From Escherichia coli (GTDB lineage Bacteria; Pseudomonadota; Gammaproteobacteria; Enterobacterales; Enterobacteriaceae): 64,000 nt of DNA. The stretch is from the NCBI RefSeq assembly GCF_048403405.1, contig NZ_CP183129.1; one strand, written 5' to 3'. A program made the position numbers. This document shows, piece after piece, positions 9,001 to 12,000 of the stretch. The first letter of the stretch is position 1. Each line of letters opens with the position of its first letter.

Positions 9001-12000
9001 TAAACTGTTCATGCGTTAGTTTCTCCACAGACACAAAACGCCACGACGCCCGGAGCTGCACACTCGCGGGCGTCACTCTTTTCTGGAGCGCAAAAGATTT
9101 TGTAGACCAGTGCTGCATGCTCTTGGAGCTTCGAAATTGACAGATACAACTCATCATTAATTGCTGTCTGCTCGTGTGGCTCCACGACCCCATCTTCGAT
9201 TGCCGAACGAATCTGCTTTGAGTAATTCCCGATCTGTTCGATGACTTCCAGCAGGCGCTGGTTTATATCGGCGTTCTCTACTTCCTCAATTTCAGGAAGC
9301 GATACGAACACCCCACCAGCAGACTGTGCGACAGCATCCGCAATGTAGTGAGTGCCAGCCGCGCGCTGTAAAACCATTGCCCATCCCAGCGGGAAAATCT
9401 GATCGCCATCGGCACGAAGGCGGTTAAATAATGCGTTCTCTGTTACATCCAGCCAGTCAGCTGCTTCAGCGTAACCACCCGGCAACGCTGCGATAGTTTT
9501 TCTGACAGCTTTCACGTACCACTCAGGCTGTTTTTCTACTTTCCAGTGATACTTACCCACGGTTAGCCTCATCGTTCTGTGGTTAAAAATTGAAGGTGTT
9601 CTGTTAATCTTTCGGATAGATATCCGGTCTTAAGTCAGATTTCGTAATTGCACCTGACGTGCATTGCTCAAGTTTTTTCGCCAGCACAAAACTGGCTTTT
9701 TTATAACCATTGAAAACCAGCCGTAAGTAGCCAGGTGTTGAGCCAACTTTTCCGGCCAACTCGCCCTGCTGTTCTTTGGTTAAAGAGTCCCAATACGCTT
9801 TCATACAATATGTACCTCCGGTATACATATTACATGATTGAAATGAACCTTCAAGATACTTGTACCTTATCGGTACAAAGGTTTTAATTTCGTTATGAAA
9901 ACAATCCATGACATCCGGCGGTCTAACGCCAGAAAACTGAGAGATGGTGTTGGCGGAAATTCATCCTTTGCCACCATGATTGATCGCGAGCCAACCCAAA
10001 CCAGCAGGTTTATGGGGGATGGCGCTACTAAAAATATCGGTGACAGCATGGCACGGCACATCGAAAAATGTTTCGACCTGCCTGTCGGATGGCTTGATCA
10101 AGAACACCAGACAACGAACATCACAAAAAAACCTGATGTTTCAATCACTAACAAACAAATAACGTTAGTCCCTGTCATATCATGGGTACAGGCCGGAGCA
10201 TGGAAAGAAGTTGGCTATTCTGAGGTTGATTTGAGCACAGCAGAAACGTATCCCTGCCCTGTACCCTGTGGCGAAATGACTTATATCTTGCGGGTGATTG
10301 GTGATTCAATGATTGATGAGTACCGCCCTGGAGACATGATTTTTGTTGATCCCGAAGTCCCTGCCTGCCACGGTGACGACGTTATTGCATTGATGCACGA
10401 TACAGGCGAAACCACCTTCAAGCGATTGATAGAAGATGGAACACAGCGTTATCTCAAAGCATTAAACCCAAACTGGCCTGAGCCTTACATTAAGATTAAC
10501 GGTAATTGCTCTATAATTGGTACAGTGATTTTCTCGGGAAAACCAAGAAGATACACAATAAAGGCCTAATCAATATTTATGAACCTGCTTCGGCAGGTTT
10601 TTTTATACTTGACAATGTACCCATGAGATACATAATGTATCCAAAAGAAACATGAGGCAGGCAAGATTCAAACAAAATTTGGTTGTAACACGGCGTATGG
10701 CACATGCGTCGTTAGCGGTCTGGGGACGTTAAAGGGGACAATCCACTTCTTGCTCGGGCAAACAAACCAGGTAGTCGGAATGTGCAAGTCAATGATGATG
10801 CTGATAAGACGCCTAACCAGCGTGGCGATCCGGTTTGACGCCTGGGAAGAGACCAGGGTGCAACGATGAGGGCATTTATGGAGCCGCGACAAAGTGTGGT
10901 GCCGTAACTGGCTAAGTGCTCTCAGCGTTGTGGTAATCCGCGAAATGGCGCGGCGGTAAGTATGGCGGGGTTACTCTTTCCCCGTTGAGGACACCGGATT
11001 GTCAGGTTGACCATACGCCTGAGTGACAACCCCACCACAACAGCCACTGCTTTGGCGGTACCAGTTTGTACACTTGCTTCCGGCTGGTACCGCTCTTTTT
11101 ACAAAACAGAGAAGAGCATCACCGGACGACAGGCTCATAACCCAATCCATCCGGGCGGCTGCCACCGCAGGTGTTCTTCTCTGTTTTGTGGAGAAACCAA
11201 CCGACCTTGCAGGGTCGATATGATGAGGAGCAGCAAAATGGCTAGCGAACGCAGTACTGATGTGCAGGCATTTATCGGGGAGCTGGACGGCGGCGTATTT
11301 GAAACCAAAATCGGCGCAGTTCTCAGTGAAGTCGCTTCCGGTGTGATGAACACGAAAACCAAAGGTAAGGTCTCACTCAACCTGGAAATCGAACCATTTG
11401 ATGAGAACCGTGTGAAAATCAAACACAAACTCTCATATGTTCGCCCGACTAACCGCGGGAAAATTTCCGAAGAAGACACCACCGAAACGCCGATGTATGT
11501 CAATCGCGGTGGTCGCCTGACTATTCTGCAGGAAGACCAGGGACAATTACTGACTCTTGCCGGTGAACCTGACGGAAAACTACGCGCAGCAGGTCATTAA
11601 TATCGTTCTTAATTAACTGATTATTTATCTCATCACTGAATATCTTTATATAGTGAGGACTTATTATGTCTCAGAACTTAGACGCAACCGCAATTAATCA
11701 AATCCATGCCCTTATTTCTGCTCAGGGTGTTAATGAAATTATCAGTAATATTGGTGCCGATGCTGTGGCATTGCCTGAGAATTTCCGCATTCATGATCTG
11801 GAAAAATTTAATTTAAATCGCTTCCGTTTCCGTGGTGCGCTTTCCACTGCCAGCATCGATGACTTTACCCGTTATTCTAAAGATCTTGCAGATGAAGGCA
11901 CCCGCTGCTTTATCGATGCTGATAATATGCGTGCCGTCAGTGTACTTAACCTGGGTACTATTGATGAACCAGGTCACGCAGATAACACCGCCACTCTCAA

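Follow-up and report, generated by a model that had tools for sequence, protein, structure and literature searches.

An e14/SfV-type CI/Cro immunity region in Escherichia coli with five candidate operators and a predicted leaderless repressor transcript

The immunity region found in a 64-kb window of Escherichia coli DNA (the whole stretch that was analyzed, 64,000 nucleotides) can be explained as a CI/Cro switch between lysis and lysogeny that is organized as in lambda and has the immunity type of e14/SfV, a reading to which we assign a probability of roughly 0.85. The region is an ordinary switch of this prophage family and was previously catalogued. The repressor shares 223 of 224 amino acids with YmfK (CohE) of E. 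coli K-12 e14, the cro gene is ymfT (croE), and PGAP applies the names ymfK and ymfT to identical genes. In the SfV record (GenBank U82619.2), a “putative operator region” covers the same 69 bp, corresponding to window positions 9810–9878, and the cI terminator is also annotated. With its near-identical repressor and operator region, the locus belongs to the e14 YmfK/SfV cI immunity group. A preceding sequence-only reading had proposed a cI/cro immunity region here and treated it as an open question. Its functional assignment is upheld, but the finding, while correct, is not new, because the e14/SfV module was already annotated, is very common and had previously been shown to produce a repressor mRNA without a leader. 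The features of the region are collected in Table 1.

Table 1. Features of the immunity region and its flanks (window coordinates)
Feature	Position	Strand	Description
cII-like regulator (YmfL family/Phage_CP76)	9009–9560	-	Start GTG at 9560 per SfV annotation
cro (ymfT-type)	9604–9804	-	66 aa; YdaS-family HTH; ORF plus SfV/Ayreon annotation
OR1	9810–9828	.	ATGTACCTCCGGTATACAT; about -8 to +11 of predicted pR, plus DNA of the cro Shine-Dalgarno sequence
pR (cro promoter)	9827–9854	-	Predicted; -35 TTGAAG 9854–9849, 16-nt spacer, -10 TAATAT 9832–9827
OR2	9843–9861	.	ATGAACCTTCAAGATACTT; degenerate, 2 mismatches to consensus; candidate, newly listed
OR3	9860–9878	.	TTGTACCTTATCGGTACAA; perfect 7-bp arms; over pRM -35 and spacer
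pRM	9860–9895	+	-35 TTGTAC 9860–9865, 17-nt spacer, -10 TTTAAT 9883–9888
cI repressor (YmfK/CohE type)	9895–10569	+	224 aa; HTH at about residues 1–70, linker, S24 autopeptidase 93–212
cI intrinsic terminator	10581–10606	+	Hairpin 10581–10600 plus T run; annotated in SfV, Ayreon
pL-like promoter	10609–10636	+	TTGACA-16-CATAAT, 11 of 12 consensus matches; annotated in Ayreon
OL1	10615–10633	.	ATGTACCCATGAGATACAT; fills pL spacer
OL2	10635–10653	.	ATGTATCCAAAAGAAACAT; 1 mismatch; about -9 to +10 of pL; candidate, newly listed
Conserved, apparently structured RNA module	10682–10865	+	About 184 nt; pL leader

The module was present in 1323 of 5426 complete E. coli genomes (24%), and the same module is carried by phages SfV, SfIV, cdtI, Ayreon and 2H10 and by Stx2c phages. 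Identity at the DNA level is 96–99% to SfV, cdtI, Ayreon and 2H10, and the N-terminal domain of cI is 98.9–100% identical throughout the SfV/SfIV/cdtI/Ayreon/2H10/Stx2c phage group. The e14/SfV type is thus one of the commonest immunities in E. coli and also governs the toxin-converting cdtI and Stx2c phages; for the immunity finding itself, little changes. A scan of IMG/VR with an alignment of the N-terminal domain returned 80 loci, every one 100% identical, a result that informs on abundance only. The IMG/VR set being too uniform, diverged homologues were taken for comparison by exact-protein look-up.

The proposed S24 peptidase domain of the repressor was borne out by a match to Peptidase_S24 (PF00717) at residues 93–212, spanning the full length of the profile with an E value of 1.5e-26. 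Searches with phmmer matched the C-terminal domain of lambda cI (E 1.8e-9), UmuD and LexA, and the tracts VQAG (Ala100-Gly101), GDSM (Ser138) and FKRL (Lys176) align with QAG, GNSM and FKKL of lambda. The roles of Ala100-Gly101, Ser138 and Lys176 are presumably those established for lambda cI and LexA. The combination of this C-terminal domain, the Ala-Gly site and the Ser/Lys dyad would place the protein in the self-cleaving S24 class. In the literature, YmfK is called a CI-like repressor and is described as “SOS-sensitive” or as “likely” so, and no cleavage assay was found in the papers that describe it in this way.

The N-terminal domain had been described as lacking a canonical lambda/434-type helix-turn-helix (HTH). 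This holds at the level of sequence: no Pfam HTH family was detected in cI at E ≤ 0.1, no HTH_3-type match was obtained, and hhalign comparison of the family profile with the 434 and lambda N-terminal domains gave <1% probability, although this last test is weak, each template having been a lone sequence. It does not hold at the level of structure, since the predicted fold of the domain is an XRE-type HTH, i.e. the lambda-repressor-like fold. Solved homologues of the domain are SPC32H Rep (PDB 5d50/5d4z) and PaaR2, such that a repressor domain without a Pfam HTH match can now be placed in a structurally characterized family.

The cro product matched the Pfam family YdaS_toxin with an E value of 1.6e-5 and 25.1 bits (cut-off 30), and HTH_3 with an E value of 0.007. 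The cII-like regulator matched PF06892 (E 1.2e-14), the NCBIfam model YmfL (E 1.9e-50) and PHROG 101, “CII-like.” GTTCTGT repeats between cro and cII were considered as a cII-binding repeat and set aside, as they are not evidently conserved in relatives. No toxin-antitoxin genes were found 3′ of cI in the gene calls.

In a consensus scan, pR and pRM both fell below threshold, and these promoters were assigned by eye and by comparative geometry; Edwardsiella phage EPP-1 has, by eye, the same pR geometry (TTGCAG-16-CATAAT). The sequence-only reading had suggested that cI is leaderless, with its ATG ∼7 nt after the candidate -10, and the -10 hexamer TTTAAT indeed ends 6 nt 5′ of the ATG. The best duplex of the cI upstream region with the anti-Shine-Dalgarno sequence has an energy of -3.4 kcal/mol at 12–15 nt upstream, a value reached by 35% of random 20-mers and thus not a usable ribosome-binding site; the GGAGG sequence of cro is strong (-10.8 kcal/mol). 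In K-12, dRNA-seq placed a class I transcription start site of ymfK at the A of the ATG, giving a leader length of 0 (PMC4681348, Table S3). The e14 sequence is identical to the window from -16 to +15 of cI, a stretch that takes in the -10 hexamer, the ATG and everything between them. Given the start site on the ymfK gene start and the identical e14 promoter, the cI mRNA is predicted to be leaderless and the pRM start is assigned to the A of the ATG at 9895, this start site being that of the orthologue ymfK, the protein of which is 99% identical. A start site at the initiation codon in K-12 e14, the lack of a Shine-Dalgarno sequence and a -10 at 6–7 nt agree in this respect. The proposed leaderless start was therefore right, is already published and can now be tied to the K-12 start-site data.

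To describe the operators, the motif WTGTACN7RTACAW was searched across the 64 kb. It occurs at three places only (OR1, OR3 and OL1), giving four strand matches where 0.03 would be expected by chance, and none of 100 shuffles reached four. The three 19-bp palindromes with a shared pattern that had been noted are therefore real, and their coordinates overlap those of the predicted cro, cI and pL-like promoters. The number of operators requires revision, as five candidates were recognized instead of three, OR2 and OL2 having been missed. Allowing ≤2 mismatches to ATGTAYCN5GRTACAT adds these two sites and an unrelated one at 52287; this relaxed search yielded 12 strand matches, whereas 40 simulations under a first-order Markov model averaged 1.3, and the two promoter regions account for all but one of the six best matches in the 64 kb. 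The half-site is (A/T)TGTACC. The right operator comprises three conserved copies of the motif, of which OR2 is degenerate and has the pR -35 at its center, which lies at -43 from the cI start. The centers of OR1 and OR2 are 33 bp apart, those of OR2 and OR3 17 bp and those of OL1 and OL2 20 bp, and the pL -10 hexamer straddles the OL1/OL2 junction. OR3 is the best palindrome of the set, a property more in keeping with strong negative autoregulation, or with a site preferred by Cro, than with a weak OR3 as in lambda. Neither for YmfK nor for SfV cI did the literature searched, which did not extend to Allison 2002 (SfV) and Mehta 2004 (e14), yield a footprint, an EMSA, a ChIP experiment or a genetic mutant of the operators, and the operator and RNA sequences searched as literature text gave no match. 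The five-site predicted map and the cross-genus half-site consensus provide concrete targets for footprinting and are useful for sorting Stx2c, cdt and SfV-type phages into predicted superinfection-immunity groups.

Conservation of the sites was assessed in 11 loci from nine genera (E. coli, Edwardsiella, Pseudomonas, Serratia, Providencia, Salinicola, Morganella, Salinivibrio and Fukatsuia), the repressors of which are 42–100% identical. OR1 lies at -85 to -88 (once at -79) from the cI ATG in all 11 loci, and a recognizable OR2 shares the window offset in 8 of the remaining 10, with differing flanks. OR3 likewise keeps its distance from the ATG; its half-sites are conserved and the central 5 bp vary. 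Of 58 strong half-sites, every one has G3 and T4, 54 have T2 and 56 have A5, and the central bases vary. The pRM geometry, (T/C)TGTAC-16/17-xxxAAT-6/7-ATG, was found in 9 of the 11 loci, with a poor fit in two distant ones (L090 and L092). The pL promoter is conserved in e14, EPP-1, L086, L087, L089, L091 and L093, the arrangement of TTGACA followed directly by OL1, with CATAAT formed at the OL1/OL2 junction, being kept in seven loci and in e14. The cI of H-19B, the N-terminal domain of which is 41% identical, was examined as a further bearer of these operators and rejected, its operator sequences being unrelated.

Starting from what is shown (the sites, where they lie and how far they are conserved, the folds of the domains, and an orthologue in e14 whose transcript starts without a leader), we infer the following course of events. 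A repressor dimer would most likely recognize 17–19-bp inverted repeats of the form (A/T)TGTACC-N5-GGTACA(A/T), three of which (OR1, the weak OR2 and OR3) would occupy the 90-bp cro-cI spacer, with OR1 on the -10 and start of pR and OR3 on the -35 and spacer of pRM. The remaining two would lie 3′ of the cI terminator, OL1 within the pL spacer and OL2 on the pL start site. Binding of CI to OR1/OR2 and OL1/OL2 would switch off the lytic promoters, and binding to OR3 would limit repressor synthesis. CI at OR2 may additionally boost the intrinsically weak pRM, by analogy with lambda CI and PaaR2, and a pRM transcript starting at the A of the AUG would result in leaderless translation of cI. Upon DNA damage, RecA-stimulated self-cleavage at Ala100-Gly101, involving Ser138 and Lys176, would derepress pR and pL, after which Cro (YmfT) would presumably act at the same sites.

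An account in which there are only three true operators, those listed in the sequence-only reading, is improbable but carries appreciable weight. Here, 9843–9861 and 10635–10653 would be conserved as promoter elements, the former as the pR -35 and the latter as the -10 and start region of pL. Conservation of OR2 could reflect the pR -35 rather than repressor binding: its invariant core CAAG is the -35 TTG on the opposite strand, a TTGNNN -35-like hexamer is central in OR2 in all 11 loci, the right half is poor, the left half is missing from one locus (L088), and OR2 and OR3 overlap by 2 bp. Nevertheless, in 9 of the 11 loci the left half matches the half-site well (ATGTACC, GTGTACC or ATGAACC), which a -35 alone would not demand. 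OL2 is present in e14, EPP-1, L086, L087 and L093 and is lacking or shifted in L089 and L091, but in the window it has both half-sites and lies 20 bp from OL1, and the clustering of the best motif matches at these two regions argues for five sites. A spacing of 20 bp is usual for pairwise cooperativity in 434/P22-type switches.

Two other accounts concern what recognizes the palindromes. Since Cro is also an HTH protein, and CI and Cro are both candidate binders, the palindromes might serve mainly Cro (YmfT) or another factor while the S24 repressor recognizes something else. We regard this as very unlikely, as the motif travels with the repressor N-terminal domain across genera, is kept in Pseudomonas and Salinicola loci where the divergent gene is annotated only as hypothetical or lacks a recorded Pfam hit, and is not shared by the H-19B operators; moreover, in lambda and PaaR2/YdaS both proteins use the same sites (PMC8630535). 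Still less credible is that 9860–9878 works at the RNA level instead of binding a protein, forming a + strand hairpin or terminator that might, for instance, attenuate read-through into cI. A scan does list it as terminator-like, with a 7-bp stem and a 5-nt loop followed by AGGTTTTAAT, but the stem contains just three G-C pairs and is followed by a broken T run, the same motif occurs at OR1 and OL1 without T runs, and across the 11 loci the half-site letters (G3 and T4 invariant) are conserved, not pairing alone, with no compensatory changes.

Downstream, pL leads into a ∼600-nt untranslated and strongly structured leader, not into an N-type antiterminator gene. The core of this leader (10682–10865) is the ∼184-nt RNA module, which is absent from Rfam; a search of the + strand from 10560 to 11300 gave no Rfam hit at the gathering threshold or at E ≤ 1, and ARAGORN found no tRNA. 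The module is 77–82% identical in P1/P7, flanked there by tRNA-Ile and ban, and in Uetakevirus phages, in which tRNA-Arg follows immediately 3′ of it. Compensatory base changes occur in two of the hairpins of the module. This structured RNA past pL may be more interesting than the switch. If it is a functional RNA, its expression would be confined to induction or infection and the non-coding RNA would be horizontally mobile. The 2-bp overlap of OR2 and OR3 may also preclude their simultaneous occupancy, and exclusive use of the two, with OR2 at -43, would give a switch logic unlike that of lambda. We offer only tentatively, and would not presently favor, the extended proposal that the switch gates an undescribed mobile phage non-coding RNA and that the overlap makes activation and repression of pRM exclusive.

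Among known systems, e14 (ymfK-ymfT-ymfL) is closest, with 3 of 131 positions differing around the 90-bp intergenic region (98% identical), the same gene sizes (675, 201 and ∼555 nt), the same terminator and the same pL with OL1/OL2. The right half of OR1 reads GTGTACA in e14 and GTATACA here. By contrast, e14 is a defective 15-kb remnant in which pL leads straight to ymfJ, with neither the ∼600-nt structured leader nor the yfdP/yfdQ/yfdR-like genes of the window. SfV has a different insert (orf33) past pL, and its operators are annotated as putative only. For SPC32H Rep, the profile match covers residues 1–77 only, and the rest of Rep is unlike the S24 domain. The C-terminal part of Rep is reportedly (work ascribed to Kim et al., 2016) a tetramerization domain, with inactivation by an antirepressor and not by self-cleavage.

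The PaaR2/YdaS system of CP-933P in E. coli O157:H7 works alike, although the present region is not a member of the PaaR2/YdaS/YdaT type. Its repressor is leaderless by 5′ RACE, its OR and OL have been footprinted, and PaaR2 activates its own PRM at low repressor levels (PMC8630535). Homology is restricted to the N-terminal domain; PaaR2 lacks an S24 domain and shares its transcript with a toxin-antitoxin pair, the consensus of its operators (GTTTAGTAA repeats) bears no relation to the sites described here, and the cII analogue is YdaT rather than the YmfL/CP76 type. Finally, the region resembles lambda in its divergent pR and pRM, candidate tripartite OR, predicted leaderless cI from pRM, OL on pL and a site centered near -42/-43 of pRM, and in a homologous S24 domain with the QAG site and Ser/Lys dyad. 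It differs from lambda in that the N-terminal domains have no detectable sequence similarity, the sites are 19 bp with a TGTACC half-site, the centers of OR2 and OR3 are 17 bp apart as opposed to 23 bp in lambda, there are two OL sites as opposed to three, and pL lies immediately 3′ of cI and is not followed by an N gene.

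The switch is an already known immunity module. At the DNA level the region shares 98–99% identity with phages 2H10, Ayreon and cdtI and with several Stx2c-converting phages; for SfV and SfIV the value is ∼96%. In the GenBank record of SfV, a "putative operator region" corresponds exactly to window positions 9810–9878, and cI, cro and the cI terminator are also annotated; the Ayreon record annotates the promoter after cI. The repressor matches YmfK (CohE), encoded by the cryptic E. coli K-12 prophage e14, at 223 of 224 residues. Over 131 nt aligned across the intergenic region there are three differences, and the neighbors are of e14 type, namely a cro (ymfT) and a cII-like gene of the ymfL family. 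Of 5426 complete E. coli genomes, 1323 carry the module at ≥95% identity, with its genes named ymfK and ymfT by PGAP, and an identical repressor N-terminal domain was found on >80 IMG/VR contigs. An earlier, sequence-only reading, which had described the cro and cI arrangement as it is found here, was essentially right save for the nuance of an "atypical" repressor domain.

The three palindromic operators that this reading had proposed (OR1 and OR3 in the cro-cI spacer and OL1 at the pL-like promoter after cI) are all present exactly where it had placed them. Apart from these three places, the 64-kb window has no match to WTGTACN7RTACAW, and 0.03 matches would be expected by chance. When the whole window was searched with up to two mismatches to ATGTAYCN5GRTACAT, 12 strand matches were obtained against a simulated mean of 1.3. 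This relaxed search added just one unrelated site and two sites adjoining the known palindromes, OR2 and OL2, which had been overlooked. The candidate operator set, as read from the DNA, thus stands as proposed and grows from three sites to five.

Coordinates of the switch, the pL leader and the cro-side RNA matches in the window
Feature	Position	Strand	Details
cro	9804–9604	−	Gene call
cI	9895–10569	+	Gene call
pR	−35, 9854–9849; −10, 9832–9827		TTGAAG, 16 nt, TAATAT; read from sequence
pRM	−35, 9860–9865; −10, 9883–9888		TTGTAC, 17 nt, TTTAAT, 6 nt to ATG; read from sequence
Candidate OR1	9810–9828		ATGTACCTCCGGTATACAT; read directly in sequence
Candidate OR2	9843–9861		Relaxed search
Candidate OR3	9860–9878		TTGTACCTTATCGGTACAA; read directly in sequence
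cI terminator	10581–10600 plus T run		Scan
pL-like promoter	10609–10636		TTGACA-16-CATAAT; 11/12 consensus matches
Candidate OL1	10615–10633		ATGTACCCATGAGATACAT; read directly in sequence
Candidate OL2	10635–10653		Relaxed search
Terminator-like hairpin	11055–11100	+	10-bp G+C-rich stem, then TCTTTTT
Long, nearly perfect inverted repeat	11101–11189	+	ACAAAACAGAGAAGAGCATCACC ... GGTGTTCTTCTCTGTTTTGT; directly after the hairpin
yfdP-like gene	ATG 11238	+	SD GAGGAG; just 3′ of the inverted repeat
isrK	8576–8652	−	Rfam gathering-level match, 55.4 bits
C4 antisense RNA	8464–8551	−	Rfam gathering-level match, 82.8 bits

Ten further loci, with repressors 42–81% identical overall, were compared: Edwardsiella phage EPP-1, a Pseudomonas phage and eight chromosomal prophage loci (an enterobacterium, Serratia (two loci), Providencia, Salinicola, Morganella, Salinivibrio and Fukatsuia). 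An OR1-type TGTACC...GGTACA palindrome lies ∼85 bp, and an OR3-type palindrome ∼35 bp, 5′ of the cI ATG in all ten, and most have a weaker OR2-like copy at ∼52 bp. In loci with a strong promoter after cI, TTGACA is followed directly by OL1, and in most of these OL2 follows after a 1-bp gap, such that the −10 hexamer CATAAT is built from the junction of both sites. Among the strong half-sites, 58 in number, G3 and T4 never change, T2 is kept in 54, A5 in 56, C6 in 46 and C7 in 51, and the central five bases vary freely. Fixed half-site letters around a drifting center are the signature of a protein-recognition site rather than an RNA hairpin, and the palindromes are predicted to be sites of the former kind. 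The cI of H-19B has an N-terminal domain 41% identical to that of the window cI, and its operators are unrelated; the motif therefore follows the close family of the window repressor's DNA-binding domain.

Both pR and pRM are weak by consensus, and a consensus promoter scan called neither. The geometry of pR implies that OR1 extends from about −8 to +11, and the pR −35 hexamer forms the center of OR2. By the geometry of pRM, which was found again in 9 of the 11 loci, OR3 covers the −35 hexamer and spacer, and OR2 is centered at −43. Upstream of cI, the best anti-SD pairing reaches −3.4 kcal/mol, lies at a useless distance and is equalled by 35% of random 20-mers; the value for cro is −10.8 kcal/mol. 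In E. coli K-12, ymfK is among only five leaderless mRNAs (Romero et al. 2014, PMC4681348), its class I transcription start site being the gene start, with a leader length of 0 (Table S3, PMC4681348). Given that the e14 and window sequences agree at every position between the start of the −10 hexamer and the end of the start codon, the proposal of a leaderless cI mRNA is correct, and not new. In several database entries the repressor ORF starts 2–22 codons further upstream, inside the operator region (L003, the EPP-1 locus, at 1435–2169; proteins P0018, P0031, P0034 and P0035; and L091, another relative locus). For these entries, the shorter, leaderless ORF is favored by its conserved MKT beginning and by the −10 geometry.

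In Pfam, a full Peptidase_S24 domain (E = 1.5e-26) was the sole domain recognized in cI, with no match to any HTH model, and a 56-sequence family profile of the N-terminal domain resembled neither the 434 nor the lambda domain. In sequence, the domain is thus non-canonical as had been suggested, but its predicted fold is an ordinary helix-turn-helix. There are four helices in the AlphaFold model (pLDDT 75); helices 2 and 3 (residues 22–28 and 33–40) make up the helix-turn-helix, and loop 41–49 takes the place of canonical helix 4; the family profile matched Rep (E = 2e-12) and PaaR2 (E = 1.2e-5) in the PDB. As modeled, the domain is structurally ordinary. Alignment of the C-terminal domain to lambda cI runs through QAG (the cleavage site), GDSM and FKRL.

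The early-right operon runs leftwards from cro into a YmfL/CP76-type cII-like gene. The first ATG of this gene, at 9572 (−), has no SD (+0.2 kcal/mol), and SfV is annotated with a GTG start at 9560 (−), preceded by GAGG; the true start is likely 9560. A pair of GTTCTGT direct repeats between cro and the cII-like gene (9574–9580 and 9598–9604, +; 24 nt start to start) could serve a pRE-type promoter as the binding site of its cII-like activator, and is not evidently conserved among distant relatives. The isrK and C4 matches fall within a 278-aa ORF (8176–9012, −) with an Ash-family C-terminal part, which SfV labels "immunity region." This region looks like a second, antirepressor-type module similar to P1 immI or Gifsy-1 IsrK-AnrP, and the ORF call probably extends too far at the 5′ end. 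Elsewhere, the window carries a cspA-type thermoregulator 5′ UTR (1319–1758, −), scoring 156.7 bits, and three clustered tRNA genes (20065–20382, +). An upstream tRNA cluster of such a kind is typical of the late region in Stx-type lambdoid phages.

The structured RNA behind pL deserves separate attention more than any other feature here, the switch itself being of low interest. Rightwards of pL, ∼600 nt (10640–11237, +) contain no convincing ORF and no N gene, and this leader folds much better than shuffled sequences (z = −4.9). Its core is a mosaic module of ∼184 nt (10682–10865, +), common at 77–82% identity to P1/P7, where it lies directly 3′ of tRNA-Ile and 5′ of ban, and to Uetakevirus phages, where it lies directly 5′ of tRNA-Arg; a 24-mer of the core is present in >120 IMG/VR stretches. 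From 12 representatives, RNAalifold predicted 40 pairs, six with compensatory changes, mostly in two hairpins. In this alignment, which samples three or four lineages and in which the long-range helices are invariant, 98% of cells at predicted pairs can pair, as against 26–42% with partners slid, and the covariation score exceeds those of all 500 shuffles. No Rfam family and no tRNA were detected in the leader. The core is a candidate for an undescribed phage RNA module, a lead rather than a demonstration. Further downstream, the hairpin and inverted-repeat segment (11055–11189) is also present in SfV and SfIV.

The region is best read as a lambda-type bistable switch, in which CI dimers would silence pR from OR1 (and OR2) and pL from OL1/OL2, OR3 would restrict cI transcription, and pRM would yield the leaderless cI mRNA; SOS-triggered CI self-cleavage would free the lytic promoters, with Cro competing for the same operator sites. 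By comparison with lambda, the window sites are 19 bp, OL has two sites rather than three, and the OR1-OR2, OR2-OR3 and OL1-OL2 spacings are 33, 17 and 20 bp, the second of which means that OR2 and OR3 share a 2-bp overlap. Moreover, the most symmetric site is OR3, not OR1, OR1 overlaps the DNA of the cro Shine-Dalgarno sequence (GGAGGTACAT), and pL lies immediately 3′ of the cI terminator without an N gene downstream. Footprinting and ChIP work on YmfK or SfV cI was sought in the literature, and none was found. Besides lambda, the nearest experimentally dissected analogue is PaaR2/YdaS of CP-933P, whose N-terminal domain is homologous to that of the window cI. There, the PaaR2 mRNA is leaderless by 5′ RACE and N-terminal sequencing, the OR and OL sites have been footprinted, and PRM is activated at low repressor levels (PMC8630535).
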